Source: Eledone cirrhosa
Lineage: Eukaryota
Assembly (NCBI GenBank): GCA_964016885.1
Contig: OZ024757.1
Location: 17,546,001 to 17,610,000, forward strand
Reading direction: 5' to 3'
DNA length: 64,000 nt
The notes under the pieces are model-generated. The model had not been told where the DNA came from. It saw only the letters and a program-made list of their open reading frames with translations, and ran no database searches. The translations under genes were made by a program, and so were the position numbers. Each line of letters begins with the position of its first letter. Within the stretch, counting starts at the first letter, position 1. Shown piece after piece: positions 11,653 through 61,423 of the stretch.

Positions 11653-13996
11653 ATGGCCTCAACAATGAAGAAAAAATACAGGCAGTACAGCGTTGATTAC
11701 TTACGGTTCGGATTCATGCCATCGCCGTCGAACCACCTGTCACCCGTGTGTTTAATTTGCAAGGAGTCCTTTTTGAATGAGGCGATGAAGCCATCGCGTT
11801 TGAGTGGACACCTGGAGGTGAGGCACCCCGAAAAGAGATATAAAGATTTAGCATACTTTCAGTCTCTTAGGGACCAATCCAGAAAACAACACTAATTTCT
11901 TCTGCCTTTTCAAAAGTTGAAGCTTCAAATGTTGATGGACTTATCGCATCTTACAATATTGCCAACATAATCGCAAAGTGTGGCAAGCCCCATTCCTTCG
12001 GTGAAACATTGGTAGCTCCTGTCATCTCAGAAGTTCTTTCAACAGTACTACATCAGAACCCGTTAAAGACCCTGAAATGTATTCCGTTGAGTAACGACTC
12101 AATAAGGAGACGCATCGATGAAATGGTGGAAAATGTTGAACAAAAATTATGCAACATCTTGAAATCGACACAATTTGCTTTGCAACTTGATGAAAGCACA
12201 CTTTCCGTGAATCAGTCCTTACTACTGGGATATGTGCGATTTGTCCACCAAAACGAAATGCACGAGGAGCTTCTCTTCACTCTGAATCTAGCCACAGATA
12301 CTAAAAGTGCCACCATCTTTGAATCTGTCAAGGGATACCTCTTAACAATATTGTATCGTGCTACGGACAGCGCAAGATCAATAGTCGGCCAACATAAGGG
12401 TTTCGTCTCTCTTCTGAAGAGGGAAAATCAATCTGTATTTGCTGTTCGTTCATTGTGTCATTCATCGACAACACTTGGCTGCGAAGAAACTCAGCGAGCC
12501 GCTGAGCAAGTCTTTGCAGGTAGCCATTGATGTCGTCAATTATATCAAACGCCATGCCCTCAATGAACAAATTTTCCAGCAACTGTGCGAAGATAATGAC
12601 GAAGAATTCGTGGAGTTGCTCCTTCATACTGAAGTGAGGTGGCTTTCAAAGGGCAAGTGCCTTACTCGCTTCTTTGAACTGTTCGACTCTATCATTGAGT
12701 TTCTTCGAGGATGCAACACAGAACTGTATAAAAAAAACCTCGATGTGAGGCAAGACTACGCCTACCTCGCCGACATCTTCGACAAATGCAATAGCCTCAT
12801 TATGGCTTTGCAGGGGAAGAAGATTACCTTGTTTAAAGCAAGGAATGCTGTGAAAATATTCCTGGCCAAACTGAAAGTCATCGAAAGGAATCTTTGTCGA
12901 TGGGAATTCTATAATTTTCCTAGTGTCGCCAATGTTCAAAACATTGTGAGCGATGACCAACTCCAAATTTATACCGCGCACCTCCGTGCACTACAAGACA
13001 ACATGAGAGAACAGTTTGTTGACCTTTTGCAGATGGACATCCCAATGTTGATAGCAGATCCCTTCATAGCTAACGTCGACGATTTTGACGTTAAATTTCA
13101 GGAAGAATTAATTGAACTTCAGACAGATGACATTATCAAAATTAAATTTTCCAAAATAGGTGAACCCCTTTTTTGGATGCAAGAGCAAATTCAGCGTCAA
13201 TTTCCACTTCTACATGCAGAGGCTAAGAGAATTGCTTTGCCTTTTCCTAGCTCATACTTAGTTGAGAGGGGGTTTGGCGTTGTTTCCAGACTGCATAGTA
13301 AGGCTCGCAACCGCTACAATGTGATTGCACGTGGAGATCTCCGGCTACAGCTCACGAAAATTCAGCCTGACGTCAAAGAGTTAGCTAAACTCTATGAAGC
13401 TCAAGGGTCCCATTGATACAAGGTCAAAGTAAGTCTATTTTTTATTTGTAGTTGCAGTCTGACTGGACTGGAAACCATCTACCACAATTCACTTACTCAT
13501 TTGTTGTATATATTTTACCGTTTACTAATGAATATACCCTCTTACGTGGTCATGAAAACCCTCTTGCGTGGTCTCTAAGTTCACAAAGCGGAGGGGACAT
13601 CAAGTTAGATATCAACATTTATTCTGTCCGTTTCATTAAAGGGAAAATTGGAAAGCTTTGAAATAATACAATTGCCACTTTCTTCCAGATAAGAGCACTC
13701 TTTGGATAGACAGAGTTTCTCTTGTATAAATGTTCAAAATAGCTGGTATCGTCTGGTGGGAATATAACAAATTCAACTGATCCTTATTCATAAAAAAGAC
13801 ATTTATGTTCCTTTTTTTGAAATTTATATACTTCCTTTTAAGGAATGGTATCTTTGGAATATTGTTAATCAATTTTTTAGTAATCTACTGATATCAAAAT
13901 CAGTAGTATATTGAAAAATGGAAAAATAGGGTGGGGGGGGGGGTGATTTCGAGGGGCAAAAGGGGGTATTTGGCCGAAATGGGTTGAGAACCCTTG
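11653..13996 (+). mobile_element. hAT Buster/Charlie-like transposon; near-complete transposase pseudogene (11653-13416)
   Basis: BED finger CLIC..HLEVRH, LQLDEST, ATDSA, HCVIHR, EVRWLSKG, SSYLVERGF; stop at 11893 and frameshift near 12430; terminus GGTTGAGAACCCTTG at 13982-13996. Confidence 0.9.
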
Positions 13997-15364
13997 CCCC
14001 ACAAAATCACGAAACACCCCCTACCCTATTTTTCCATTTTTCAATATACTACTGATTTTGATACAAGTAAATTACTGGGCCAAATCAAGTTATGTTAGAA
14101 TCTTTAAAAAAAATACTCGTACAAATTAAATACAAAAAAAGTTTCAGTCCAAAACAAAAGCAAACTGTTTCAAATTATATATTTTTGAAAAATAGATGTG
14201 AATGTTCTCAAAGATTTGATCTCAGTCGAAAAAGCTTTTTTTTTAAATTCTATATTTCACTGTTAGCTGTTGTAATATTTTGAGTGGATAAACAATTCTA
14301 TAATTCAAACTGTAAAGTCAAAATCCAAAAGATATAAAATATGAAAAATTTCTTACCTTTCTCAGAAATCACAAACTCAGGGGAAAAATAGTACCTAGCA
14401 AAATAAAATACTTAGCAACAAATGAATTGAGAAGCTTGGAGACAGTGAGAAAGTAGTATTTGTATCACTTATATATATACATAGATAGATACACAGACAC
14501 ACACAAACACACACGTTTGGGTACAGAAGGAATTTTGTCTAGTTTTTTATTGCCAGGTCAAATGCCACTGCTCTTTTCAACAACGCCAAATAACAACGCT
14601 CCACACACACACACACAAATGAAGAGAGAAAGAAATGTGTGTGTGTTTGGTACAGATCTATATATCTATCTATCTCCAACATGGGGCTCACACATGCGGC
14701 CCGCGAACTACTTATGTGTGGCCCGTGGTAGAACCAATATTTCATATTGCATAACTGGTGAAAATAAGGCGGTGAGCTGGTGGAATCGTTAGCACATCTG
14801 GCGAAATGCTTAACGGTACTTCTTCCGTTTTGAGTTCAAATTCCGCCGATCTCATCTTTGCCTTACATCCTTTTGGGGTCGATGAATTAAGTACCAGTTG
14901 TGTACTAGGATCGATGCAATCGACTGGACCCTAAACCCCAAATTTCATGCCTTGTAGAATAGTAGAAATGATTATAACTGGTGAAAATGTTCACCCACCA
15001 CCACGTTTGGCCCACTGTGCCTCTCCTCCAGGACGTAATAGCCCTTTTGTGTCCTTGAGTTTGAGACCCCTCTTCTACACCACACACACATATATTTTAC
15101 TTTTTTTCTGTCTCTGGACCACGCCCATGCTGGAGCATCACCTTGGTAAGTTATCGGGACGTCAGCAAACCAACAAGCATTGGTGGGAGGGCAAACACAA
15201 ACGCAAAGACACACACAGACATATATACGACAGGCTTCTTTTAGTTTCGATCTATCAAATCGACTCACAGGGCTTTGGTCAGCCCGGGCAGTGGGACTGA
15301 ACCCGGAAATATGTGTTTGGGAAACAAACTTCTTGTCACACTGCATATATATATATATATATGA

Positions 15365-16842: not shown

Positions 16843-17489
16843 TGATCTCAACATTGCCTTTCATCCTTTTGGGGTCAATGAATTAAGTACCAGTTGTGGA
16901 CTAGGATCGATGTAATCGACTGAACCCTAAACTTCATGCTTTGAACCCTAAACTTCATGCTTTGTTCCCTAAATTTCATGCTTTGTTCCTATAGTAGAAA
17001 TGATTATAACTGGTGAAAATCTTCACTCACCACCACGTTTGGCCCACTGTGCCTCTCCTCCAGGACGTACTGGCACTTTTGTGTCCTTGAGTTTGAGACC
17101 CCTCTTCTACACACACACGCACACATATATACTTTACTTTTTTTCTGTCTCTGGACTACGCCCATGCTGGAGCATTACCTTGGTAAGTTATGGGGACGTC
17201 AACAAACCAACAACCCGGAAATATGTGGTCGGGAAGCAAGCTTCTTGTCACACTGCACATATATATGTGTGTGTGTGTGTGTGTATACATTATACACACA
17301 CACATATATATATATATATCCTTACACACTTAAATATAAATGCATGTATATATACAAATGTATAAATGCATAGCTATATACATACGTAAATTCTATTCAA
17401 TTCAATTCAATATATTTTGCAGAAATTAAATTGAATTTACGTATGTATATAGCTATACATTTATATTTAAGTGTGTAAGGATATATATA

Positions 17490-17690
17490 TATGTATATAT
17501 GTATGTAAATTTATTTATATATATATATATATATGTATGTAAATTTATATATATATATGTATGTAAATTTATATATATATATATATGTATGTAAATTTAT
17601 ATATATATATGTATGTAAATTTATATATATATATATATGTAAATTTATATATATATATATATGTAAATTTATATATATATATATATGTAA

Positions 17691-17840: not shown

Positions 17841-18617
17841 ACACAATGCAGATCCTGGGTACACAAGAGATGTAGCGGGATAGCAGGCAAACTAACAGGT
17901 AGGGAGAAATATGTATGCAGTAGATGTACAGGGAAATTAGACAGTAGAAGTCGCACTGATAGACACATTTTCAAATGCAAGAGGGCGCTATAGAAGTTGT
18001 GGATAGCTTCCGGTACCTAGGAGATCAGATTAGCATGGGAGGAGGGTGTTCCGAGGCCATAGTATCTAGAATAAGGACGGGTTGGAAAAAGTTTAGGGAG
18101 CTGCTTCCTCTGTTGACGAAGAAGGGTTTCTCCCTGCGTACGAAAGGCCGGTTGTATGATGCCTGTGTGAGGAGCGCGATGCTGCATGGTAGTGAGACAT
18201 GGGCAGCAACTGCAGAGGATATGCGACGGCTGGAGAGAAATGAGGCAAGCATGCTCCGTTGGATGTGCAGTGTAAATGTGCGTGAACGACCCAGCATAAA
18301 TGTGTTGAGAGAGAAACTGTGTCTGAGAGGGATAGAATGTAGTGTATGGGAGAGGAGACTGAGGTGGTATGGACATGTGATGCGTATGGAGGATGACCGA
18401 TGGGTGAAGAAGTGCCAGGAATTTGCCAGTTGAAGGAAGACGTGGTAGAGGTAGACCACGAAAAACATGGGCGGAGGTGGTGAGAACAGACCTCAGATCA
18501 TTGAAGCTCACGGTGGAGATGACGAGGGACCGTGACGAGTGGAGAGATGCTGTGCTGAATAAGACCCGTCCCACCCTTGCAAGCAGGGAAAAGCGGACGT
18601 AAAATGATGATGATGAT
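17841..18617 (+). mobile_element. 5'-truncated RTE LINE, subfamily A
   Basis: FRYLGDQI, LHGSETW, RRLRWYGHVMR; (ATG)n tail; frameshifts. Confidence 0.9.
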
Positions 18618-18680
18618 GTATGTATGTATGTAAATTTATATATATATATATGGATGTATGTATGTATGTATGTAAATTTA

Positions 18681-20665
18681 TAATCAAGGATATGAAGACG
18701 GGTAAGGCGGCTGGGCCTTCGGAAATAGTTGCTGAGATGCTGAAGGCATCTGGCACGGTGGGACACACCATGGTCACCCGCATAGTTAACCAAGTCGTAC
18801 AGAATGGGGTTGTTCCGAAGGACTGGCATAGCAGCATCATCGTTAACTGTTACAAGGGTAAAGGAGACGCCCTAGATAGGAGTAACTATAGAGGCATTAA
18901 ATTAATCGACCAGGTCATGAAGGTCACGAAAAAAGTAATAGCGCAACTAATCAGAGAGAGAATTGACCTAGATGAAATGCAGTTCGGGTTTGTGTCAGGC
19001 AAAAGTACCACAGACGCTCTTTTCATAGTACGACAACTACAGGAGAAGTACCTAGCTAAAGGTAAACCCCTCTACTTAGCTTTTGTCGACTTGGAGAAAG
19101 CCTTCGACATAGTCCCCCGCTCCATTATCTGGTGGGCTCTTAGAAAACTAGGCGTTGACGAATGGCTTGTGAGGGCTATACAAGCCATGTATAAAGAAAC
19201 AGTCAGCAAGGTTAGAATTAACAACGAATATAGTGAAGAGTTTAGCGTAAAAGTTGGCGTCCATCAGGGCTCTGTTCTCAGCCCCCTACTATTTATTATT
19301 GCCCTTCAGGCTATAACAGAGGAGTTCAAGACCGGCTGCCCATGGGAACTATACGCAGACGACCTGACACTCATAGCGGAATCAATGGCCGAGCTAGAGA
19401 AGAAATTCCAAACATGGAAGCACGGCCTAGAGTCAAAAGGACTTAAAATTAACCTGGCTAAGACTAAAGTTCTAGTTTGTAGGAAAGAAAATAAGGCGGC
19501 GGTCCCTTCTGGGAAATGGTCGTGCTCGGTGTGTAGGAAAGCCGTAGGTAGAAACTCCATTTTATGTCCTAAATGCAAAGTATGGGTGCATAAAAGATGT
19601 AGTGGGATCACAGGTAAGCTAACTAAGAACATAGATTTTACATGTGGCCGGTGTTCTGGTGCAATAAGTAGCAGCAAGTGCCCACAAAATACTAGCTCTT
19701 TCAATTGCGCAGAGGGTTCTATAGAAATAGTGGACAGCTTCCGTTACCTGGGCGATAAAATCAGCAGTGGGGGAGGGTGCTCTGAAAGTACAGTAGCTAG
19801 AGTCAGAACCGGTTGGAAAAAGTTCAAAGAGCTTATACCACTATTAGCTGCTAAAGGGTTCTCCCTAAAAATGAAAGGCAGGTTGTACGATGCCTGCATA
19901 CGAACAGCAATGTTGCATGGCAGTGAGACCTGGGCATTGTGTGCAGAGGATATACGCAGACTAGAGAGGAACGAAGCTTGCATGCTCCACTGGATGTGTA
20001 ACAGTAATATACGTGAACGGCAAAGCATAAACGAACTAAGGAAAAAATTAGAGATAAGAGGGATCAGATGTTGTTTACTCGAGAGAAGGCTACGTTGGTA
20101 TGGACACGTGATGCGCATGAAAGTCGATAGCTGTATAACAAAGTGCAGGGCAATAAAGATAGACGGTAGCCACGGAATAGGCAGACCTAGAAAAACCTGG
20201 GACGAGCTGATAAACTCCGACCTCACACACTTACACCTCTCCAAGACAATGTCACTGGACCAAGACCTTTGGCGGTACTCAGTAACAGAGAAGACCCGCC
20301 TTGCCAGTAGGCATCTCTAACAAAATACACCCCGTCCCGCCACCCCATCCACACCACCCCGTTCTATGTAAAGTTATGTTGGTGCCGCGCCATCCAGGCC
20401 GAAACAAATGAGATCGTGTAGGTGTCACGACAAAAAAACACACAGTCCACGCTGTAATGTGGCCGTGTAGGCAACACGGTAAAAACCTCCCAGACCCACA
20501 CTGTAAATGTGGTTGGTGTTAGGAAGGGCATCCAACTGTAAAAAACCTGCCAGACAGTCCTATGCGAGCAAGACAATCACTCTTGCCTCAAGTGGGACTA
20601 CCCCCGTCCAAACCCATGCAAGCGTGGAACACGGACGTTAAACATTGATGATGATGATGATGATA
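18681..20665 (+). mobile_element. 5'-truncated RTE LINE, subfamily B, with open RT frame (to 20320)
   Basis: NYRGIKL, QFGF, FVDLEKAFD, GVHQGSVLSP, YADD, PHD-like insert; ~340-bp 3' UTR, (TGA)n tail, ~30-bp TSD containing TATATGGATGTATG. Confidence 0.92.
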
Positions 20666-28470: not shown

Positions 28471-28657
28471 TACATATACTCACATAGAGATATGCACATA
28501 CTTTTATACAAACATATACATGGACACAAATTTCTATACACATACATATGCACTCATATATATATATGTATATACATATAACCTTACGGTAAATATTGAT
28601 CCAATTCATATCAAGCACTCTACGCATTTTTTCCACAACGGAAAAACGGAGTATATT

Positions 28658-28846
28658 TAGAATGAGAAAATTCGAAGTAGTTTCAGATGTTAAAGTCCTT
28701 TATTGATAATGCTATGATTCTGTGTACCCAGTGCCGTGACTTCATAATGATGTCATGGCACTGGGTACACGGAATTGTGTGGCCACTGTCTTCATTATCA
28801 ACAAAGGTCTTTAATATCTAAAACTACTTTGCATTTTTTTATTCTA
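28658..28846. mobile_element. MITE-like nested foldback element
   Basis: ~54-bp imperfect outer inverted arms and a 24-bp inner hairpin (28717-28775); left-arm copies at ~35580-35660, 36715-36845 and 44075-44200. Confidence 0.65.
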
Positions 28847-29062
28847 TATATATATATATTTATATATATTATTTGTGAATTCTGTACCATACAGTTTTGT
28901 CAGCACAAGTCTTAGTTACAACTGCTACAAAAAAAAAAAATGAGAAGAGAATATTTTCTTAGTAAACTAGTTTTATTTAAAACATTTACAACATTGGTGA
29001 CACTATTGTGGGTAAATGTTAGTTTTTATCTTGTCCGATTGAGTCTTATTAAGTAACCTTTA

Positions 29063-29919
29063 CAACAGAATTATTTACCACAAACATCACAGTGATATGG
29101 TTCCTCTCCTGTATATGTTAGTGTCTAGTGAAGTCACAACATTTAGAGAATGATTTACAGAAGATATCACATTGACATGGTTCTTCTCCTGTATGTATAT
29201 ATTAGTATCTGGTGAAGCCACAACATATAGAAAACGATTTACAAAAAATATCACATTGATATGGTTCCTCTCCTGTATATGTTAGTGTCTACTGAAGCCA
29301 CAATATTTAGAGAATGATTTACTACAGAAATAATAGAGATATGGTTTCCCTCATCTATGCATATGTATATATTTAGTTAACTTGCTCCATTCAAATAAAC
29401 ATTTCCAAACATATCAAAGTGATATGGCTTCATCATTTTACGTCCACTTTTCCCTGCTTGCAAGGGTGGGACGGGAACTGATTCTGGCTTGATTTCTACA
29501 GCTGGATGCCCTTCCTAACACAGTGAGTGCTGGGTGCTTTTTTGCCGTGGCACCTCCACGACCACTTTGCAGTGGAATGATAGGGACCCCAGTCCTATCA
29601 TCTCATTTCTACAGCTGAGTAAACTGGAGCAATGTGAAATAAAGTGTCTTGCTCAAAGAAACAACACATTGCCCGGTCTGAGAATTGAACTCACAACCTT
29701 TCGATTGCAAGACCAATGCTCTAACCACTAAGCCATGTGCCTCCCACTTGTATATATGTTTCAGTGTAATTAATGCAGCATTGAAAGAGAATGATTTCCC
29801 ACTGATATGTATTTGTGACTCAATAATTCACAATTTTGAGAGAATCATTTATAAGTGATATCACTGTTACGATTTCTTTTCTGTATGTATGAGTTTGTGA
29901 GTAGTTAAGCTATTATTTA
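29063..29919 (-). pseudogene. Decayed zinc-finger repeats downstream of the ZNF stop codon (putative 3' UTR)
   Basis: Degenerate ACAGGAGAG.AACCATATCA.TGTGAT and AAATCATTCTCT units with stops and indels; candidate AATAAA on the minus strand at 28972-28977. Confidence 0.75.
29430..29745 (-). mobile_element. tRNA-headed SINE with RTE-A tail (same family as 15365-15692)
   Basis: Reverse complement aligns along its whole length, with an internal deletion. Confidence 0.85.
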
Positions 29920-31629
29920 CTAGATATCACAGTGATATGGCTTCTCTCCTGTATGTATACGTTTGTGTTTAGTTAAGCTAGCATGTTGAGAGAATGATTT
30001 ACCACATATATCACAGTGATATGGCATGTCTCCTGTATGTATACGTTTGTGACATGTTAAGCTAGTGCTTACAGAGAATGATTTACCACAGATCTCACAG
30101 TGATATGGCATTTCTCCTGTATGTATACGTTTGTGAGATGTTAAGTTTCCTATTTGAGAGAATGATTTACCACAGATCTCACAGTGATATGGCTTCTCTC
30201 CTGTATGCATACGTTTGTGAGAGGTTAAGTTTCCTTTTTGAGAGAATGATTTACCACAGATATCACAGTGATATGGTTTCTCACCTGTATGTACACATTT
30301 GTGAGTAGTTGGGTGACAACTTACAGAGAATGATTTACCACAGATATCACAGTGATATGGCTTGTCTCCTGTATGTATACGTCTGTGAGAAGTTAGGTGA
30401 CTACTTACAGAGAATGATTTACCACAGATCTCACAGTGATATGGCTTATCTCTTGTATGTATGCGTTTGTGTTTAGTTAAGTTACTGCTTACTGAGAATG
30501 ATTTACCACAGATCTCACAGTGATATGGCTTGTCTCTTGTATGTATGCGTTTGTGGTTAATTAAGGTACTGCTTACAGAGAATGATTTACCACAGATCTC
30601 ACAGTGATATGGCATGTCTCCTGTATGTATACGTTTGTGAGAAGTTAGGAGATTACTTACAGTGAATGATTTACCACAGATCTCACAGTGATATGGCTTG
30701 TCTCCTGTATGTATACGTTTGTGAGATGTTAAGGTAGTGCTTACAGAGAATGATTTACCACAGATCTCACAGTGATATGGCATTTCTCCTGTATGTATAC
30801 GTTTGTGTTTAGTTACGTTTCCTTTTTGAGAGAATGATTTACCACAGATATCACAGTGATATGGTTTCTCACCTGTATGTACACGTTTGTGAGAAGTTAG
30901 GTGACTATTTATAGAGAATGATTTACCACAGATATCACAGTGATATGGCGTGTCTCCTGTATGTATACGTCTGTGAGAAGTTAGGTGACAACTTACAGAG
31001 AATGATTTACCACAGATCTCACAGTGATATGGCTTGTCTCCTGTATGTATACGTTTGTGAGAAGTTAGGTGACTATTTATAGAGAATGATTTACCACAGA
31101 TCTCACAGTGATATGGCTTGTCTCCTGTATGTATGCGTTTGTGGTTAATTAAGGTACTGCTTACAGAGAATGATTTACCACAGATCTCACAGTGATATGG
31201 CATGTCTCCTGTATGTATACGTTTGTGAGAAGTTAGGAGATTACTTACAGTGAATGATTTACCACAGATCTCACAGTGATATGGCTTGTCTCCTGTATGT
31301 ATGCGTTTGTGTTTAGTTAAGGAAGCGCTTACAGAGAATGATTTACCACAGATATCACAATGATATGGCTTCTCTCCTGAATGTACATGTTTGTGAATAG
31401 TTAAGGTGTTCTTATAAGCGAATGATTTTTTACAGATATCACAGTGATATGGCCTGTCTCCTGTATGTATACGTCTGTGTATAGTTAAGTGGCTATTACA
31501 AGAGAATGACTTTTTACAGATATCACAATAATATGGCTTCTCTCCTTTATCCTTCAGCATCTCATCTGGAATATTCATCCTTTTAGACAGTGTTTCAGAT
31601 TTTATCTCCTCACTCACTCTATTTTCCAT
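29920..31629 (-). CDS. Tandem C2H2 zinc-finger protein, 19 complete fingers, no recognisable effector domain
   Basis: 569-aa uninterrupted ORF of 28-aa repeats PYHCxICGKSFxxxxxLxxHKRIH with TGEK/TGDK linkers; ~30-aa N-terminal leader; stop falls inside finger 20. Confidence 0.93.
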
Positions 31630-31958
31630 AATGATTTTTTCGTCTCTATAGAATATAGATGTTTTTCTTGTAATATTTTTTATATTATATTCCTGAAAAT
31701 ATTTTTTCTACTATATTTCCCTCAACTGTGATCTCAGTTAATATTTGAAGATAATGCAAACTTCTTTTTCATCCAAATTTAGTAAAAATAGAAAATATAT
31801 CTCATAGTGAAGAAAGGAAATTTTGTCAAAAAATTCAGTTCTGGGGAAATATTTCAGTAATTCAACCATAGATTTATATAATTTCAGTATAAAAAGCCCA
31901 ATACAGGTGATGTATTCAAGATTAAAAATAGTAATTTATCCCAATGTCATCTGTTATT

Positions 31959-35413: not shown

Positions 35414-35959
35414 GTAATTGTTACACAGGATATTAGATTAATTGAAGTTATAATGAAAACAACTTGTATGCGATGACGTTGACAATATTTGTGTGTGTAT
35501 GTATATTATATTTATATATATATATGTGCATGTGTGTATATATTTATTTGTAAATATATATATACACACATACTTCCGGTAAACATTGATCCAATTCAAG
35601 TACTCCACAAGTAGTTTCAGATGTCAAAGTCCTTTACTGATAAGAATGTGATAGATATTTCAATGATATATATATATTTGCTAGAAATAGCAGCGAAATT
35701 ATCTTTTACAGCTTTATTTTTTGTTTAAACTCTCGTAAGTTTGGTTATACAATCAACAACAGCAAAACTTTTTTGTACAGACTTCAGAATAAACTCAAAG
35801 CCTGCCAGAATATCATTCTCCCTCTTATTTTGTATGTGTGTGTGTATTTATTTGTAAATATATATATGCGTATCCCTCCCCCAATCTCTCTCTCTTTATA
35901 TATACATACATATATATATATATATATATACCTCTTAACCAAATATAGACCCCAATCCA

Positions 35960-36320: not shown

Positions 36321-36339
36321 ATATATTATATAGAATAAC

Positions 36340-36532
36340 GAGGCTGGACTGGTGTAATTCCTTGAAAGGTTTATTATACTATGATCATTTCAAAGACCGG
36401 GTTCAGTATGAATCCGGTGACATCATCAGGTATTCTGAATACCTGATCATGTCACCGGATTCATACTGAACCCGGCCATTGAAATGATCATAGTATAATA
36501 AACCTTTCAAGGAATTACACCAGTCCAGCCTC
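36340..36532. repeat. Foldback palindrome, ~96-bp arms, centre 36436
   Basis: The arms are reverse complements with about 4 mismatches and a 1-nt spacer. Confidence 0.95.
36376..36433 (-). ncRNA. Minimal hammerhead-like motif (imperfect base of stem II)
   Basis: ATAC-CTGATGA-..CCGG.TTCA(TAC)TGAA.CCGG..-GAAA-TGATCA-TA-GTAT; the mirror copy has CTGATCA. Confidence 0.5.
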
Positions 36533-36844
36533 CTGTTATTTTATAATAATTAACTCCGTACTCGCACCACCAACAACACAAACGAAGACGGGTGAGTTGC
36601 ATTACGTCGAGTGCTCTCCCTAATATTACATTGAGGTTGACCATATAGAATGACCAGTTCTATCCAGTGGTGAACCAACAAACCTAAATAAATATATATA
36701 TATATATACTTACAGCAAATATTGATCCAATTCAATTCAAGTATTCCATATAGGGATGTTGGAGTATATTTAGAATAAGAAAATACGAAGTAGTTTCAGA
36801 TGTTAAAGTCCTTTACTGATAAGAATGTGATACATATGTCAATG

Positions 36845-36876
<32 letters not shown>

Positions 36877-36906
36877 AGATCAAAAGATGGTTAAAGGAGT
36901 TCCATG

Positions 36907-36977
36907 TATTTTATTATGCGCATTTCAAAAACAAACATCATCATGCAATAATATTTGTGTTTTCATCAGATAAAACA
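36907..36977 (-). ncRNA. Minimal type-I hammerhead ribozyme (mirror copy)
   Basis: Exact reverse complement of 37087-37157. Confidence 0.7.
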
Positions 36978-37086
36978 GGAGAACATGATATGAAGGCTAA
37001 AAAACACTTGTGGATAGTGCAGTTTTAAATCAACATATCAACTGCACTATCCACAAGTGTTTTTTAGCCTTCATATCATGTTCTCC

Positions 37087-37157
37087 TGTTTTATCTGATG
37101 AAAACACAAATATTATTGCATGATGATGTTTGTTTTTGAAATGCGCATAATAAAATA
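37087..37157 (+). ncRNA. Minimal type-I hammerhead ribozyme
   Basis: Stem I TTTTAT/ATAAAA, CTGATGA (37095-37101), 12-bp stem II with G-U pairs and a GCAT loop, GAAA (37138-37141), palindromic TGCGCA, AUA cleavage triplet. Confidence 0.72.
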
Positions 37158-37280
37158 CATGGAACTCCTTTAACCATCTTTTGATCTTATATATTATGTA
37201 TACTCCAGTCCTACAAACTGTAGAGTGCTTCTTATCCGATATCTGCATTGCTTTATTGTACTACAATAAAACTCACCTCC

Positions 37281-37319
<39 letters not shown>

Positions 37320-37580
37320 CATGTCTTATAGTATATATTTTAATATCTGATGATTCTAAAGACATGATTTATGATATAATGCTCTGATTTTTTTATTTTA
37401 ATTTATTAATTCTTCATAGAGCTTAAAAGTGAACAGTTGCAACATATATATATCTTTAACTTTATGTATATGATAACCTTTTTATATATATATATTTGCT
37501 AATATGCAAATCAGGCCGATCAGTCAATGTATATTCCAGAAAATATCATATATTTTCACTAGCTCTGACAGTTGGCGGGT

Positions 37581-37643
37581 AAACAGTAGACAGTACTGAT
37601 GAAAGGTAATTACCCAGAAACACTAGTGCCTGCCGTTCTGTTT
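37581..37643 (+). ncRNA. Degenerate minimal hammerhead (duplicate at 44357-44419)
   Basis: CTGATGA, GGT(AATT)ACC, GAAA, palindrome CACTAGTG; U16.1 replaced by C; imperfect stem I AAACAG..GTA/TGC..CTGTTT. Confidence 0.5.
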
Positions 37644-37739
37644 GTATGCCATCACAAGAGCAAGAATGAAGGAGTCATTCTACTAACATGGCTTGAGAGG
37701 CTGTTTGTATAATTGCAAACAAATTGAATATTATTATTA

Positions 37740-37930
37740 GTGGATTGGCAGTATCGGTAGAGGGTCGGACACCATGCTTTGCAGCATAGAGTTACGGCCC
37801 TTTGTGGTCTGAGTTCAAATCTCGCCGAGGTTAACTTTGCCTTTCATCCCTACGGGGTCGATAAAATAAAGTACCAGTAATACGCTGGGATAATTGCTGG
37901 CCTTGTGCCCAAAGTAGAAACAATTATTAA
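37740..37930 (+). mobile_element. Nin/Deu-domain SINE (duplicate at 44515-44705; further copy at 45140-45312)
   Basis: B box GAGTTCAAATC, GCCGAGGTTAACTTTGCCTTTCATCC, tail TAGAAACAATTATT. Confidence 0.75.
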
Positions 37931-38494
37931 TATTTGAGAAAGTCAGATTTACATTTCTTATACATATGTATATATCATCATCACCGTTTTACGTCCATTC
38001 TTCCACGCTAGCATGGGTTAGACGGGTTTTCCTGTTGTGGGCAGTGTCCGGTTGGCTGACCTTGTCTTGCTCATACGGGAACTTATTCTGGCTTGATTTC
38101 TACAGCTGGATGCCCTTTCTATAATTACTGTATCATTGAAAGGTTCCCATAATTCTATTATTTACATACATTAATATAGACTTCAAATAAATCTTTGTCA
38201 ACTTACCTTCTTCACATATAATCAATGTGTTGTGTTTGTGGGTATGGTGTGGCGTGGCGTGCGGTGGCCGGAAGCGGGGAAGTGCTCGACCGGAAGGGTG
38301 CTTGGCCAGAAGGATGCTCGACCGGAAGGGCCAGCAGAGAGCCCCTCTCTAGAGGTGACCAGCAACGGTGTGGACGCGAGTTTGGGCAGCTCCCGGTGTT
38401 AAGCAATTGGACGCACGTGGAAGAGGAGTAACCTGAAGTGGAGTTTAGCGGCGCCTGTGAAAAGCGGTAAGTGAGATAGCTTTTTCTAACCACA

Positions 38495-41934: not shown

Positions 41935-42305
41935 GAAACCCAAAGTGCTGCCCCAACACTGCGGAGATCGCAAAGAAGTCGTAAACCACCAACCTGGACA
42001 GCAGTCTTTCATATGCAGAAGGACGAGGGGGAAATTGATCCTTGAGATCAGGGGGGCGTGTGGGTATGGTGTGGCGTGCGTTGGCCGGAAGCGGGGAAGT
42101 GCTCGACCGGAAGGGCCAGCAGAGGGCCTCTCTAGTGGTGACCAGCAACGGTGTGGACGCGAGTTTTGGCAGCTCCCGGTGTTAAGCAGTTGGACGCACG
42201 TGGAAGAGGAGTAACCTGAAGTGGAGTTTAGCGGCGCCTATGAAAAGCGGTAAGTGAGATAGCTTTTTCTAATCTAACCACACCAACAAACCTAAATAAA
42301 TATAT

Positions 42306-44056
42306 CATCATCATCATCATCATTTTACGTCCACTTTTTCCTGCTTGCAAGGGTGGGACGGGTCTTATTCAGCACAGCATCTCTCCACTCGTCATCTCCA
42401 CCGTGAGGTTCAATGATCTGAGGTCTGTTCTCACCACCTCCGCCCATGTTTTTCGTGGTCTACCTCTACCACGTCTTCCTTCAACTGGCAATTCCTGGCA
42501 CTTCTTCACCCATCGGTCATCCTCCATGCGCATCACATGTCCATACCACCTCAGTCTCCTCTCCCATACACTACATTCTATCCCTCTCAGACACAGTTTC
42601 TCTCTCAACACATTTATGCTGAGTCGTTCACGCACATTTACACTGCACATCCAACGGAGCATGCTTGCCTCATTTCTCTCCAGCCGTCGCATATCCTCTG
42701 CAGTTGCTGCCCATGTCTCACTACCATGCAGCATCGCGCTCCTCACACAGGCATCATACAACCGGCCTTTCGTACGCAGAGAGAAACCCTTCTTCGTCAA
42801 CAGAGGAAGCAGCTCCCAAAACTTCTTCCAACCCGTCCTTATTCTAGATACTATGGCCTCGGAACACCCTCCTCCCATGCTAATCTGATCTCCTAGGTAC
42901 CGGAAGCTATCCACCACTTCTATAGCGCCCTCTTGCATTTGAAAAATGTGTCTATCAGTGCGACTTCTACTGTCTAATTTCCCTGTACATCTATTGCATA
43001 CATATTTCTCCCTACCTGTTAGTTTGCCTGCTATCCTGCTACATCTCTTGTGTACCCAGGATCTGCATTGTGTGCATTTTATAGAATTTATGCCAGTTCC
43101 TTTTCTGCATATCGAACATGGCCATTTCTCTGATGGAATCGGAGTATTGTCCTCTCTTCTACTCATCAACACTTTTGTCTTAGCTAGATTCACTCTCAGT
43201 CCTCTTGCTTCCAACTGCTGTTTCCATAGCCAGAATTTATTCTCTAGCTCCTCTACTGATTCTGCTATAAGAACCAGATCGTCAGCATAGAGAAGTTCCC
43301 ATGGACAGCCAGTCTTAAACTCCTCTGTTATGGCTTGGAGGACTATAATGAACAAGAGCAGGCTGAGGACCGAACCCTGATGTACTCCTACTTGTATCTG
43401 GAATTCCTCACTAAACTCCATTCCTACCCTGACTTTACTGAGAGTACCTCTGTACAAAGTTTGCACTGTCCTCACAAGCCATTCCTCAACACCTAGCTTC
43501 CTTAGGGACCACCAGATGACAGATCGGGGTACCCTATCAAAAGCCTTCTCTAGGTCAACAAAGGCTAAGTATAGTGGCTTATTCTTCTCTAAGAACCTCT
43601 CTTGCAATTGTCTCACCAAGAAGAGGGCATCTGTTTTACTCTTCCCAGGCACAAAACCAAACTGCATCTCATCTAGTTTGACCCTTTCTCTAATTAGTTG
43701 TGCTAAAATCCTTTCTGCCACTTTCATAACCTGTTCTATCAGTTTTATACCCCTATAATTGCTCCTCTCCAAAGCATCCCCTTTACCTTTGTAGCAATTT
43801 ATGAGAATACTGCTGCACCAGTCTTTGGGTATGACACCACCATATATAGCCTGATTGATGATGCGTGCAACCAGTTTAGTGCCTACGTCCCCTGATGCCT
43901 TCAGCATCTCAGCAACTATTCCTGATGGTCCGGCAGCCTTACCATTTTTCAGTTCCCTAATCGCCTCTTGGACCCTATATTCGTCAATCTCAATAGCTGG
44001 TCCCTCTGTCGGATCTACCAAGGGTAATTTCTCTCTCTCCCATTTGTTCTCCACAC
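42306..44056 (-). mobile_element. 5'-truncated RTE-A with a 561-aa open RT frame
   Basis: All RT motifs incl. YADD; (CAT)n tail; sits in a (TA)n that is empty in the duplicate at 36690. Confidence 0.93.
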
Positions 44057-44199
44057 ATATATATACTTACAGTAAATATTGATCCAATTCAATTCAAGTA
44101 TTCCATATAGGGATGTTGGAGTATATTTAGAATAAGAAAATATGAAGTAGTTTCAGATGTTAAAGTCCTTTACTGATAAGAATGTGATACATATGTCAA

Positions 44200-44274
<75 letters not shown>

Positions 44275-45364
44275 CTAATATGCAAATCAGGCCGATCAGT
44301 CACTGTATATTCCAGAAAATATCATATATTTTCACTAGCTCTGACAGTTGGCGGGTAAACAGTAGACAGTACTGATGAAAGGTAATTACCCAGAAACACT
44401 AGTGCCTGCCGTTCTGTTTGTATGCCATCACAAGAGCAAGAATGAAGGAGTCATTCTACTAACATGGCTTGAGAGGCTGTTTGTATAATTGCAAACAAAT
44501 TGAATATTATTATTAGTGGATTGGCAGTATCGGTAGAGGGTCGGACACCATGCTTTGCAGCATAGAGTTACGGCCCTTTGTGGTCTGAGTTCAAATCTCG
44601 CCGAGGTTAACTTTGCCTTTCATCCCTACGGGGTCGATAAAATAAAGTACCAGTAATACGCTGGGATAATTGCTGGCCTTGTGCCTAAAGTAGAAACAGT
44701 TATTAATATTTGAGAAAGTCAGATTTACGTTTCTTATACATATATATATATATCATCATCATCATCATCACCGTTTTACGTCCATTCTTCCACGCTAGCA
44801 TGGGTTAGACGGGTTTTCCTGTTGTGGGCAGTGTCCGGTTGGCTGACCTTGTCTTGCTCATACGGGAACTTATTCTGGCTTGATTTCTACAGCTGGATGC
44901 CCTTTCTATAATTACTGTATCATTGAAAGGTTCCCATAATTCTATTATTTACATATATTAATATAGACTTCAAATAAATCTTTGTCAACTTACCTTCTTC
45001 ACATATAATCAATGTGTTGTGTTGATAATTTTTACTAAGCAACACAAGAAATAATCTCTTTGTTGTTAAATTAGCAGTTGCAATGATTTTATCAGCTTTA
45101 TTTCACGACATTAACGCTGGTGTATCTTCTTCATGGCACTATCAGTAGAGGGTCGGACGCCATGCTTTCCAGCATAGTTATGTCCCTTTACGATCTGAGT
45201 TCAAATCCCGCCGAGGTTGACTTTGCCTTTCATCCTTACGGGGTCGATAAAATAAAGTACCAGTAATGCACTGGGTAATTGCTGGCCTTGTGCCTACAGT
45301 AGAAACAATTATTGTTTAACGTCTATCTTCCACGCTAGCATGGGTTTAGACGGGAATTGTCCCA

Positions 45365-48997: not shown

Positions 48998-51180
48998 TTA
49001 GCTAGGAGGGAAGCAGAGGATAGAAAATTCAAGCATGTTTTGCAACGTGAGGACCAGAAACAGGAGGTGTTCAAGATTGCGAGGCAGTGTGTCAGAGAGA
49101 ATTGTGATGTCATTGGAGAGAAGTGTATCCGGAATGATAAAGGTGAGCTTGCCCTCACAAGTGCTGAGAAGAAAGATGCATGGAAGAGTCATTATGATAG
49201 ATTACTAAATGAGGAGAATGCATGGGAAGTAGAGACCCTACCCCAAGTATACCCTATAGAGGGGCCAGCAGTACAAGTCAGCAGCAGCGTAGTAAGTAAG
49301 GCAATCAAAGATATGAAGATGGGGAAGGCAACCAGTCCATCGGGTATAGCTGCCGAGATGCTGAAGGCATCTGGGTCTGTAGGTCACAAGTATTGTTAAC
49401 CAGGTAATACTAGAAGGTGTCATACCAAAAAGATGGGTGCAGTAGCATCATTGTCAACTGCTACAAAGGTAAAGGTGATGCACTCGATAGAGGAAACTAT
49501 AGAGGTATAAAGCTGATGGACCAGGTCATGAAAGTAACAGAAAGAGTTATAGCACAGTTGATTAGGGACCGGGTGAAACTAGATGAGATGCAATTTGGGT
49601 TTGTACCAGGAAGAGGCACCACTGATGCCCTCTTCCTTGTGAGGCAGTTACAGGAAAAGTACCTAGCTAAAAGTAAGCCACTCTACCTGGCATTCGTCAA
49701 TCTCGAGAAAGCCTTTGACAGAGTTCCGTGTGCTGTAATCTGGTGGGCTCTTAGAAAACTAGGAGTAGATGAATGGCTTGTGAAAGCTGTACAAGCCATG
49801 TATAGGGGAGCACTCAGCAAAGTTAGGATTAGCAATGAGTATAGCGAGGAATTTAGCGTACAGGTTGAGGTCCACCAGGGCTCTGTTCTTAGCCCTCTCC
49901 TGTTCATCATAGTCCTGCAGGCAATAACGGAGGAGTTTAAGACCGGATGCCCATGGGAACTCCTGTATGCAGATGACTTCGCACTTATAGCTGAATCTAT
50001 GGTAGAACCAGAGAAGAAATTCCAAACGTGGAATCAGGGACTAGAAAGAAAGAGTCTCAAAGTCAACATGACAAAGACTAAGGTCCTTGTAAGTAGACGA
50101 GAAAACAGAACCCAGATCCCCTCAGGGAAATGGCCTTGCTCATTATGTAGGAACTCCATTCTCTGCCCCAAATGCAAACAATGGGTACACAAGAGATGTA
50201 GTGGGATCTCAGGAAGCTTAATTAAGAATGTAGGCTTCACATGCAGCAGCTGTACTGGGACAGCAAGCAGCAAACAGCCACAGGAAACAAGTACCACCAA
50301 TCTCTGGGAGGGCTCTGTAGAGACAGTAGACAGCTTCTGCTACCTAGGTTACCGAATTAGCAGCGGAGGTGGGTGTTCAGAAAGTACAATAACTAGGGTA
50401 AGAACGGGATGGAAGAAGTTCAGGGAACTACTACCACTGCTAGCTGCAAAAGCTTCTACCTCAAAATGAAAGGCAGACTGTATGATGTGTGTATACAAAC
50501 AGCAATGTTACATGGTAGTGAGACCTGGGCACTGAAGGTGGAAGACTTACGTAGTTTAGAGAGAAACGAAGCCTGCATGCTCCGATGGATGTGTAATAGT
50601 AATATACGCGAACGACAAAGCATAAATGAATTGAGAGAGAGACTGAGCATAAGAGGTATCAAATGGTGTGTGCAGGAGAGGCGGATGCGTTGGTATGGAC
50701 ATGTGATGCGTATGAAGGATGACAGCTGCATAAAAAGGTGCAGAGCACTAGAAGTCGATGTAAACCGCGGAGTGGGGAGACCCAAGATGAAGTGATAAAA
50801 GCCGACCTTACCCAATTACGCCTCTCAAAGGCAATGACACACGACCGTGACCTCTGGCGTCACGCAGTAATACAGAGTACAAGCTGAAGCATATAGACAA
50901 TATGCCCCCACACCCTCCCACTGCAAGGTGGCCGTGGAGGTGCCACGGCAAAAAAGCACCCAGCCCACACTGTAAAGTGGACGTGTAGGCGCCACGAAAA
51001 AGCACCCAGCACTCACTGTAAATGAGGTTGGTGTTAGGAAGGGCATCCAGCTGTAATCAAGCCAAATCAGTTCCTGTGGGCAAGGCATGGTCAACCGACC
51101 AGACACTGCCCACAACAGGACAACCCGTCTAACCCATGCTAGCGTGGAAGAACGGACATAAAATGGTGATGATGATGAAT
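48998..51180 (+). mobile_element. 5'-truncated RTE subfamily C with 3' UTR
   Basis: RT ORFs 49040-50795 with frameshifts; (GAT)n tail; AATAC on both sides; the site is empty in the paralogue near 1032. Confidence 0.9.
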
Positions 51181-54850: not shown

Positions 54851-55326
54851 CGATCCTGCAAAAATCAATGGGTGGCAGTAGTTGCAGCTGCACGCATTGA
54901 AAGACTGGTGTAGTGGCTCTGAGAACAATGCGACTTTGCAGATGATCAATACAAATTGACAATGGAAAGGCACTCCCGCTCGAGTTAGAACAGAACTATT
55001 GACCTTCAGGAGAAGCAGTGATCCCTGATTGTATTCAGCTCCCAAAACAAATATGAAGTACACCAAATCCAATGCTCCTGGTTCTTCTTATTTGCGAGTG
55101 TTATCTCGGCCAGATTAGATATACAATACAGTCTTCAACACATATTTCTTATATCAAACACCAATATTTGGATCAATAGAATCTTATACAGCTTTTTTAA
55201 AAAAATGCATTACACAGTACAGTCTTAAACATATCTTTCTTATATCAGACACCAATATTTTAAAAGGACATTATTCAGTACATCGTTAAATATAGCTTTC
55301 TCATATCACTTACCAATATTTTAAAA

Positions 55327-56710
55327 GGGTACAAGCCATGTATAGGGGAGCAGTCAGCAAAGTTAGGATTAGCAATGAGTATAGCGAGGATTTTAGCGTA
55401 CAGGTCGGAGTCCACCAGGGCTCTGTTCTTAGCCCTCTCCTGTTCATCATAGTTCTGCAGGCAATAACGGAGGAGTTTAAGACCGGATGCCCATGGGAAC
55501 TCCTGTATGCACATGACCTCGCACTTATAGCTGAATCTATGGTAGAACTAGAGAAGAAATTCCAAACTTGGAAGCAGGGACTAGAAAGAAAGAGTCTCAA
55601 AGTCAACATGACAAAGACTAAGGTCCTTGTAAGTAGACGAGAAAACAGAACCCAGATCCCCTCAGGGAAATGGCCTTGCTCAGTATGTAGGAACTCCATT
55701 CTCTGCCCCAAATGCAAACAATGGGTACACAATAGATGTAGCGGGATCTCCGGCAGCTTAACTAAGAATGTAGGCTTCACATGTAGCGGGATCTCCGGCA
55801 GCTTAACTCAGAATGTAGGCTTCACATGTAGCGGGATCTCCGGCAGCTTAACTCAGAATGTAGGCTTCACATGTAGCGGTATCTCCGGCAGCTTAACTAA
55901 GAATGTAGGCTTCACATGTAGCGGGATCTCCGGCAGCTTAACTAAGAATGTAGGCTTCACATGTAGCGGGATCTCCGGAAGCTTAACTAAGAATGTAGGC
56001 TTCACATGTAGCAGCTGTGCTGGGACAGTACCACCAATGCTGGAGACAGTACCACCAATGCTGGAGACAAGTACCACCAATCTCTGGGAGGGCTCTGTAG
56101 AAACAGTAGACAGCTTCTGCTACCTAGGTGACCGAATTAGCAGTGGAGGTGGGTGTTCGGAAAGTACAATAACTAGGGTAAGAACAGGATGGAAGAAGTT
56201 CAGGGAGCCACTGCAAAAGGCTTTTCCCTCAAAATGAAAGGCAGACTGTATGATGCGTGTATACAAACAGCAATGTTACATGGTAGTGAGACCTGGGTGC
56301 TGAGTGTGGAAAACTTGCGTAGATTAGAAAGAAATGAAGCCTGCATGCTCCGATGGATGTGTAATACAAAATGCTGCTATACCCAATGACTGGCATAGCA
56401 GCATCATAGTCTACTGCTACAAGGGCCATAGAGATTCTCTAGTCAGAAAACTATAGAGGCATCAGTTGGTTAACCAGGTTGGTGTCCATCATGGCGCTGT
56501 TCTTAGTCCTCTCCTGGGTATAACAGAAGAGTTTAAAACTAGCTCCCCATGGGAACTTATGTATATGGTAGAATTACTGAAGAAATGAAAGGAAAACAGA
56601 TTTTCTCAGGGGAATGGCCTTGCTCAGTGTGCAGGAAGGGAGTTGATAGAAATTTATTGCTATGTTCCAAATGCAAAATATGTGTACACAAGAGATGTGG
56701 GATCTCTGGT
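55327..56710 (+). mobile_element. RTE-C internal fragment plus older RTE debris
   Basis: Near-identical to 49788-50600; YADD reads YAHD. Confidence 0.85.
55737..56012 (+). repeat. 45-bp tandem repeat x6, in frame (CSGISGSLTKNVGFT)
   Basis: Single copy in the sister element near 50197-50240. Confidence 0.95.
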
Positions 56711-58860: not shown

Positions 58861-59574
58861 TCAGAAGCACATCATTAATGTAGCTGGACTGTCGTCTATA
58901 CGGAGGTAAGTGTATATACATTAAAAAAAAATAATATAAACGAAATGAATGGAGGTAATTCGTACGGAATACAGATTTTCATAAAATTATTAGTGCAAGA
59001 CAATAATTTAATGTAAAAGAGAAAGTCAGAGATCGAATCCCGCATCGTCACACTACCACCAATGCACTAATAATTTTGTTGTAAAAAATAGTTACTCCGA
59101 ATTACCTCCCTTCGTTTCGTTTATATTTTTTTTTAAACAAAAAATGGCGAAAGTAGCTATAAGTATACTTAATTTGCTTAGTAGAATTGCGGCCTTCGCG
59201 GTGGCGTGCGAACTGCGTCTCTGACTGCCAGTCTCCCTATCTGGCGTTCGATTCGTAGTGGCGTACGACTGCATAGGCCTGGGACTATTCGGGGCCGGCA
59301 CATAGATGCAAGGCCCGTCCCTGACCACCGTGAAGAATTCTTTTTCAAAATTTCAATAATATGCAAATGAGTTTGAAGTTCATTTACATATTAGAAGAAT
59401 TATATTAGAAAGAATCTTAATATATATAGAGAATCTTGAATCTTAATTACACTCTTGAAGCTTCATTTACATATCTAATTTGCTCATTTGCATATTAGAA
59501 GAAATTTTTTAGAAATATATTAGTGAGAATCTTAATTACATTTTTGAAGACATTTTAAGAAGAACCTTGGAGGT

Positions 59575-59880: not shown

Positions 59881-61423
59881 CTTGAATAGTAAAAATGTCA
59901 TTACACTTTAGACACTCCAGCTACATTCTTAGTTTCTCTATTATTACACTTTACTTACATTCTTAATACACTTCTTCATTTACATTTTTTACTATTCAAG
60001 GGAGATAACTCTAGTATTTTGAAAGAAAGAGTTACCTCCCCTTATTCAAGGGAGACAACTCCGTAGTATTTGAATGGAAGAGTTACCTCCCTTGAATAGT
60101 AAAAATTTATTCGGAATATAATTTGTTTCTTTCCTAAATTTCGTTAAGGGTTAAGGCTGGCGAACCTTTTATTGTCAAAATAAACTGAACACAATTCGTA
60201 TATAATACGTAAACATTTCTTTATTAACAGATTAACTGAACACAATTCGTATGTATATAATACGTAAACAATTCTTTATTGACAGATAGTTCGACTTGTA
60301 AATACTCTCACTCGTTACGGCAAACGCCACAGCATAATGTCCGAGAACGCTGAAATGCAAAGTGTTTATGTGAAGTCGGGCTTTACAACGATTTTGTGTT
60401 GTTCTTGAGATATTTTATTCCAAATCACTAAGAAGTCCTTCGGAAGGTGGGTCCCCAGCGACTGACTGCAAAGAGACAGTTCTCCAAAACGAATTTACAA
60501 CAAAACACCAGTACAAATATGGAAATGAAGAAAATGTTTCAATAAAACTGTTCAATATAAAATAAAACTTTACTTTACCTGCGTAAAATAGTAAAATCCA
60601 AGTTTTTAACGTTTTTTTTTTATTCAGGTTAAAAAACATGAAGTTGATCCAGCAGCCATTTTATTTTTTTTAAACAGAGTTACCTAAAGCGCATGTGCAA
60701 AGTCGGGCGTTACAATCGTGAAGGTGTGAGTTCGATTCTCACACCGGGCTTTGTGTTGTGTTCGTGAGACACTTTATTCCAAATCACTAAGCTGTAGGAA
60801 TGAGTTTAAATTTGTACCCAGAGAACAAAAACTGAAGCTGCAATACTTCATTGTGAATGACAGAAATAGAGAAGGCAGGGCCTTAAAAATGTGAGGGACA
60901 AACCAACATTCGTTGATTCTTAAAGGAGCATGTTAGTATTGCTTAGAAGGTATGTCTAGTGAAGAACGTTTATGTAGCTTGAAAGAAAGGTTTCTTCCTG
61001 TAGAGAGATGGTAAAATGTATTTTTGTGTCACAAGAATATCTGCGAGTGTTGACAAGTATTTTATCTTAAAAGAAAGCATGCCTTGTGTGGGTGAAGAAA
61101 GCCACAGTAAATGTAGCTGAGAAGGTTTAATTTAGAAGAAAAAAATATATACAGTGAAGAACATTTATATATGTATTCTAAAAGTGGGGTAAGACGGATT
61201 CCTCGCGCGGCCCAGCATGTAGCCGCGGTCCAGCGCAACGATTCGATCTTCAGACACATAGAATGGTCACGCCAAACATAAGTAGTGAAAAAGTCCGAGC
61301 CGCTACGCGCATTGCCACAATTCTACTAAGTAAATTTGTCATATCTATAGGTAAAATTTTATTTATTTAAAAAAATATATATAGAAACGGAAAGAAAGCG
61401 AGATAACACGTAATATTCCGTTT

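Follow-up and report, generated by a model that had tools for sequence, protein, structure and literature searches.

What kind of object is a perfect palindrome with a hammerhead ribozyme motif on each strand, and how could it come to lie inside a simple TA repeat? The question is raised by a foldback in a 64,000-nt window of Eledone cirrhosa contig OZ024757.1, a stretch of repeat-rich animal DNA with LINE- and LTR-type remains. An earlier note had described this foldback as a self-standing, non-coding unit dependent on Penelope elements. Its arms (36872-37024 and 37040-37192) are, as claimed there, exact reverse complements over 153 bp, separated by a 15-nt spacer. The longest perfect inverted repeat reached at most 16 bp in 20 order-3 Markov imitations of the 13-kb stretch around the foldback.

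The two divergent minimal hammerheads proposed for these arms are present, one per strand, each with its core, stems I and II and a palindromic helix III. The right motif, of type I (37087-37157, + strand), combines CUGAUGA (37095-37101), GAAA (37138-37141), the palindrome UGCGCA (37142-37147) and UA (37148-37149), with a predicted cut after 37149. Stem I contains 8 pairs, one of them G-U (37087-37094 with 37150-37157), and stem II contains 12 pairs with exactly three G-U (37106-37117 with 37122-37133), which agrees with the 6-8 bp and the 12 bp with three G-U announced previously. The segment 37141-37148 is self-complementary and suits a dimeric stem III, with a computed self-duplex energy of -10.5 kcal/mol. 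The left motif (36907-36977, - strand) is the mirror image of the right one, its core starting at 36969 and its predicted cut lying at 36915.

This combination of letters is far above chance: the window holds the core with a 6-nt palindrome at three places, and 60 order-2 Markov windows hold it 0.07 times on average and at most once. Two of the three occurrences are one sequence, that of the two arms, and the third belongs to a second foldback (36325-36550). The stem II region also folds better on the sense strand (-9.1 kcal/mol) than on the antisense one (-2.5). A covariance-model search, suggested earlier as a check, gave no match to any Rfam hammerhead family, at the gathering score or even at E<=10. 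At the latter threshold, just miRNA-hairpin, C/D snoRNA and other models were returned, all far under their gathering scores. The likeness of the foldback to a C/D-box snoRNA was rejected, since it stems from the CUGA/UGAUGA letters of the hammerhead core. The base of stem II is an A-U pair and not G10.1-C11.1, a pair called highly conserved at the base of helix II (PMC4209133); G at 37102 and C at 37137 are found as minority variants only. A scan of viral contigs for the motif gave no locus. Metagenome contigs gave at least 117 (54/64 of the set; flanks of 80), which were dismissed as chance matches: there was no blastn match to the unit, and 0 of the 117 had six or more stem I pairs, the best reaching 5 against 8 in the foldback.

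The three G-U pairs had also been read as a sign of selection at the RNA level, which the variants of the family argue for only weakly. Among the stem II variants listed, 6/7 keep the pairing, compared with 15/24 possible transitions (p=0.19). One of the 12 core positions varies, among at least 36 variant places listed over 193 bases, about two being expected. The N7 position of the hammerhead, a variable one, does vary among family copies. Against such selection speak the A-U pair at the base of stem II and one pile of reads in sequencing run X22, which alters the palindrome at 37143. As far as the letters go, this evidence is compatible with selection on the RNA fold and is not significant.

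The palindrome consists of two ends of a single high-copy repeat, identical in sequence and 5'-truncated at different points, which face each other head to head inside a (TA)n microsatellite. A left piece of this microsatellite (36845-36871, 27 nt) is continuous with the left flank, which is common to a duplicate described below. It is followed by the left copy (36872-37038, - strand, 167 nt), which terminates at the family's short end and consists of the 153-bp arm and 14 nt of upstream sequence within the spacer. A single junction base (37039) matches the upstream sequence of neither copy, as judged from the window and the loose-end letters. Then come the right copy (37040-37192, + strand), which matches the left arm exactly, and a one-sided 91-nt tail (37193-37283, + strand), found in a minority of family copies, with a short hairpin and an AC-rich run at its end. 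All but one of the 15 spacer bases come from the element itself, as native sequence upstream of the left arm: the loose ends before 37040 (29 contigs in run X1, 301 reads in X22) have the reverse complement of 37025-37038 as their final letters. The spacer is thus the left copy's own upstream sequence, and the two copies are 5'-truncated 14 nt apart. The tail gives way to a middle piece of the microsatellite (37284-37316, 33 nt) and to a second inserted block (37314-37482, ~170 nt), with 14-bp perfect inverted arms (37314-37327 and 37359-37372) and a one-sided extension. This block has CUGAUGA at its centre, with no matching GAAA core, and is possibly a third tiny insertion. A right piece of the microsatellite (37483-37495, 13 nt) closes the array.

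The repeat family itself could be followed in four sequencing runs (X1, X4, X5 and X22, of 24 listed), whose contigs or reads were aligned at 80% likeness to 37025-37283, a 259-nt target made of spacer, right arm and tail. This single-arm stretch is matched by 3,581 contigs in X1, 56 in X4 (which bears another species label), 513 in X5 and 5,074 raw reads in X22. From these matches we infer that the family is present in thousands of copies, depth as such not being copy number. It continues upstream of 37040, with a median of 57 loose letters in 150-nt reads. Downstream, its copies end and TA repeats begin at 37182 (X1), 37192 (X22), 37202 (X1, X4 and X22) or 37282 (X5). The depth in X1 drops from 2.27 million (37160-37168) to 0.72 million (37205-37213), about a third of the former value, and this drop across 37190-37205 marks the 91-nt extension as a tail that copies of the family may or may not carry. 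At positions where the family divides between letters by roughly 30-58% (37067, 37082, 37088, 37128, 37168), both arms of the foldback carry the same letter, which suggests a single template. The family may be undescribed: a literature search, with Repbase, Dfam and supplements outside its scope, found nothing on it or on Penelope foldbacks as editing substrates. A catalogue entry for it may already exist, the supplements of PMC4209133 being one place where it could stand.

The foldback is not the form that this family amplifies. In X1, the depth of the spacer bin is 1,049 against 1.94 million over the core, about 0.05%, and the break points are varied. Other opposite-strand joints lie at 37040|37190 (78 reads, 2 starts), 37040|37253 (97 reads, 1 start) and 37041|37150 (3 reads, 2 starts) in X22, and at 37042|37190 in X1; with one or two read starts for each X22 joint, all four are carried by few molecules. 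All 3/3 rows of the joint table are of the opposite-strand kind and no head-to-tail joint is among those listed, with the reservation that tandem units longer than the 259-nt aligned stretch would escape detection. One end of all four other joints falls at 37040-37042, which is also the start of the right copy. Stopping or cutting may be favoured at this site; alternatively, the aligned stretch may simply cease to match the family there. The self-standing foldback unit envisaged previously gives way here to a high-copy family cut at varied places.

A duplicate lying 7 kb away informs about the history of the site. The flanks 36700-36845 and 37496-38236 are repeated at 44057-44202 and 44272-45023 with 0.9% difference, and between them the duplicate holds nothing else than one 70-nt TA run (44202-44271). 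The foldback is indeed missing near 44200, as had been noticed, but the missing block spans 611 bp (36872-37482) and not 321, since it includes the foldback, the 91-nt tail, a TA run and the ~170-nt block. The proposal of a recent event is also supported. The three TA pieces (27 + 33 + 13) add up to 73 nt, close to the 70 nt of the empty duplicate, which fits insertions that split one TA run. An older homologue (35609-35683) is likewise empty. It is possible that the duplicate instead lost the block by deletion between TA runs, because microsatellite lengths drift. The identity of the arms was tried as a clock for the order of insertion and duplication and proved uninformative, the probability of finding no difference in 153 bp at 0.9% being 0.25. 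A target-site duplication is unreadable inside a TA run. On a larger scale, this direct duplication of ~0.9 kb (36700-38236 and 44057-45023) brackets an LTR-type element, whose repeats near 38246-38489 and 42063-42272 show ~95% likeness, together with a LINE fragment (~42300-44055). Two origins are conceivable for the duplication, a long duplication of the target or a segmental one of local extent.

We consider it probable that the palindrome is a single dead-on-arrival insertion of the hammerhead-bearing terminal repeat (pLTR) of a Penelope-like retrotransposon, its palindromic form being a by-product of insertion. The GIY-YIG endonuclease of the element would nick both strands of the TA run, and each nick would prime reverse transcription on the same RNA. 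One cDNA would begin at about 37192, the short start site, and the other at 37283, the start site of the tail. Synthesis would terminate early in both, leaving 69 and 55 nt of element sequence upstream of the ribozyme core, and the 5' ends of the two products would then be linked, a fold-back step being perhaps involved. Copying of the left arm purely by fold-back cannot give the tail, and such copying of the right arm cannot give the 14 extra bases, so both arms needed the element as a template. The hammerhead would be a passenger of the pLTR, kept for the tandem RNA of the parent element, where it would work as a dimer.

Several published observations on Penelope-like elements (PLEs) describe a layout that the locus matches in every point. 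Truncation at the 5' end is frequent in their insertions, next to which lies an inverted copy, itself 5'-truncated; one of the ends has a tail of 30-40 bp and some clades show a bias for (TA)n (Craig et al., PMC8557442). Inverted pLTRs, an optional tail and head-to-head junctions have been attributed to self-priming (Arkhipova et al., PMC3846280). A PLE protein cuts and extends both target strands, with no need for ribozyme cleavage, and its reverse transcriptase (RT) starts at two sites, the interval between which corresponds to the tail, one of them lying in an AC-rich stem loop (Frangieh et al., PMC11167929). Minimal hammerheads of pLTRs are reported to be weakly active, and only as dimers (Cervera and de la Pena, PMC4209133). 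The same article mentions dual minimal hammerheads about 100-700 bp apart on opposite strands, probably truncated PLEs. The link to Penelope and to dimer-type minimal hammerheads made in the earlier note is thus borne out by the anatomy of the locus: an inverted truncated copy, a one-sided tail, a (TA)n target and a palindromic helix III. Against this link, none of 147 window ORFs of at least 85 aa matched a GIY-YIG family, and the RT matches among them sit in LINE-like and LTR-type repeats. An open frame through the tail has no credible protein match, and none among longer proteins; a match of this frame to a repetitive protein, at 24% identity, was discarded as compositional.

A second hammerhead foldback, of a different family, is found 320 bp upstream of the first (36325-36691). 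Its arms (36325-36550) are about 93% alike, with an intact core on the - strand at 36429, a right core broken to CUGAUCA and the palindrome UGAUCA. Its centre lies just 7 nt from the core on each side, and a one-sided 141-nt extension leads to a TA run. Kinship of the two foldbacks beyond the core was rejected, 798 of 2,000 shuffles scoring as high. An older palindrome (28652-28852, arms about 75% alike) is built from the repeat that also forms the left flank of the first foldback (36760-36845), and 14 letters at 28817-28830 equal the upstream loose-end letters of the family in X22, 0.03 matches being expected by chance. Four more imperfect palindromes of 120-250 bp have no intact hammerhead core (13879-14076, 17292-17538, 58926-59134 and 59986-60105). 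Elsewhere, the only host-gene-like ORF seen in the window encodes about 19 zinc fingers of the C2H2 type in 595 aa (29920-31707, - strand). LINE-like RT fragments followed by a PHD-finger match occupy 18617-20317, 42372-44066, 49414-50466 and 55296-56234. A tRNA-like Rfam match (29678-29735, - strand; 30.5 bits, just over the gathering score), the window's only one at that score, is probably the head of a SINE.

What would become of an RNA read through the foldback? Each strand holds one sense motif together with its full antisense, and the two motifs, being on opposite strands, cannot dimerise within one RNA. In computed folds, the stem II pair probability is 1e-25 in the full-foldback transcript, compared with 0.96 when the right arm is folded by itself; even there, stem I is seldom formed (0.03). 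The ribozyme is probably not working at this locus, and the prediction for read-through RNA is a perfect hairpin of 153 bp in which the ribozyme lies buried, a candidate ADAR or Dicer substrate. Of the alternative 'cleave or form dsRNA' proposed earlier, the dsRNA and ADAR side keeps suggestive support at the family level, and the balanced choice between the two fates is not supported in view of these pair probabilities.

This support comes from X5, a different sample from X1, and concerns the family as a whole rather than the foldback locus, to which the signal is not assignable. Four changes reach frequencies of 11-21% in this run, with 19-23 contigs each: three are T>C (37113, 37148, 37151) and one is A>G (37164). 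The same changes do not exceed 0.015% in X1 and 0.3% in X22, and stand at 0% in X4. Among the loose ends of X5, one (7 contigs) shows five T>C relative to 37134-37154 and no other change, and another (5 contigs) shows A>G at two bases adjoining 37040. A>G and T>C together make up 20/39 variant places in X5, as compared with 4/22 in X1 (p=0.01), 10/28 in X4 (p=0.16) and 14/47 in X22 (p=0.035). The pattern looks like A-to-I hyper-editing of both family strands, in a run that is not on record as RNA and with the caveat that alleles can mimic editing. No RNA run was among those listed by the sequencing-run search with the family. Heavy editing of a lizard Penelope and of self-folding frog repeats has already been reported (Porath et al., PMC5625713).

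Other explanations have to be weighed against the pLTR insertion. The closest one differs from it in the template alone: the arm would be the end of a non-autonomous hammerhead RNA that has no ORF and that a Penelope enzyme mobilises in trans, as a dispersed parasite of the retrozyme kind, with the foldback still formed at insertion. No ORF was found in or near the unit, the short end reaches a very high copy number, and animal retrozymes have been argued to derive from pLTRs (preprint 10.64898/2026.07.22.740005), all of which would suit such a parasite. We nevertheless think it unlikely, as the listed joints are all opposite-strand (3/3) with no head-to-tail one, the family runs on upstream of the arm, and the motif is of the minimal PLE type rather than of the canonical retrozyme type described in PMC7229834. 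Much less probable still is a dedicated unit copied as such, whose RNA would switch between ribozyme cleavage and dsRNA. Its perfect arms and intact motifs, and the A-to-I-like clusters of X5, which fit dsRNA formation in the family, would be expected of such a unit, but a centre at ~0.05% of the arm depth in X1 would not. Nor would the other joints at other truncation points, a tail that makes the ends unequal, or the predicted exclusion of the ribozyme fold from the full hairpin.

The long perfect inverted repeats and the TA context also recall DNA transposons of the MITE or foldback type, in which a hammerhead-like motif would be present in the inverted repeats by chance or after capture. 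The one-sided tail, the variable centres and the 5' truncation, in place of fixed terminal inverted repeats and a conserved interior, make this highly improbable, as do a motif far above chance expectation and the same layout in the second, unrelated hammerhead foldback. There is, finally, the question of whether the palindrome is real or an assembly or amplification chimera of the snap-back kind. The arms are 100% identical, and no aligned contig or read covers the whole stretch, the alignment target having had one arm only. Both outer ends, on the other hand, rejoin the correct flanks of the empty duplicate and fall on end points of the family. Moreover, the spacer bin beside the right arm is covered in three runs: X1 (1,049), X5 (2.99) and X22, which comes from a different study (mean depth of 2 reads). 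An artefact of this sort can hardly be entertained.

If the foldback is a dead pLTR insertion, the locus by itself matters little, its architecture having been described already. Its value would be that of a clean example of a mechanism that the literature calls undefined, namely how Penelope makes inverted copies and one-sided tails, because it ends on the two end points of the family, has arms of one template and can be compared with an empty duplicate. Counts of junctions among the many short insertions of the family would separate twin priming from fold-back priming. If the A-to-I-like signal holds, such insertions would be ready-made ADAR substrates, which bears on the source of bulk editing in this animal. 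A bolder and still doubtful proposal is that the TA microsatellites of this genome hold thousands of self-contained, perfect ~150-bp hairpins, derived from several hammerhead families and produced by Penelope-type integration. These would be a major substrate of ADAR hyper-editing, their ribozyme ends being read through, buried in antisense and edited on both arms. For an octopus host, whose repeats those of the window may resemble, the hairpins would give an origin to the hyper-editing and dsRNA load, both exceptional, that have been reported with no repeat annotation (PMC5625713).

How does the foldback compare with known systems? The frog Harbinger palindromes and the lizard Penelope of PMC5625713 are likewise short self-folding repeats giving long, nearly perfect dsRNA, with clusters of A>G and T>C that are seen here in one run. 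In the frog repeats the palindrome is the consensus, whereas the present foldback was likely built anew, as others would be at each insertion. Animal non-LTR retrozymes (PMC7229834; bioRxiv 10.64898/2026.07.22.740005) are also short, non-coding and high-copy, with a type I hammerhead and a palindromic helix III. They are described as head-to-tail tandem repeats with canonical motifs, in contrast to the head-to-head, dispersed copies found here, with no tandem joint listed. The minimal PLE hammerheads of PMC4209133 share the CUGANGA/GAAA/UH core, a long helix II and the palindromic helix III. They differ in the length of helix II (7-8 bp, against 12 here plus 3 possible basal pairs), in that of stem I (4-5 bp against 8) and in the G10.1-C11.1 pair, replaced here by A-U. 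The nearest likeness is with the insertions of Penelope/Poseidon, Neptune and Nematis (PMC3846280, PMC8557442, PMC11167929). The foldback locus keeps no ORF, and its tail of 81-91 nt exceeds the published 30-40 bp. Head-to-head copies with unequal 5' truncation, a one-sided extension, an AT-rich or (TA)n target and an AC-rich hairpin at the end of the tail are common to both.
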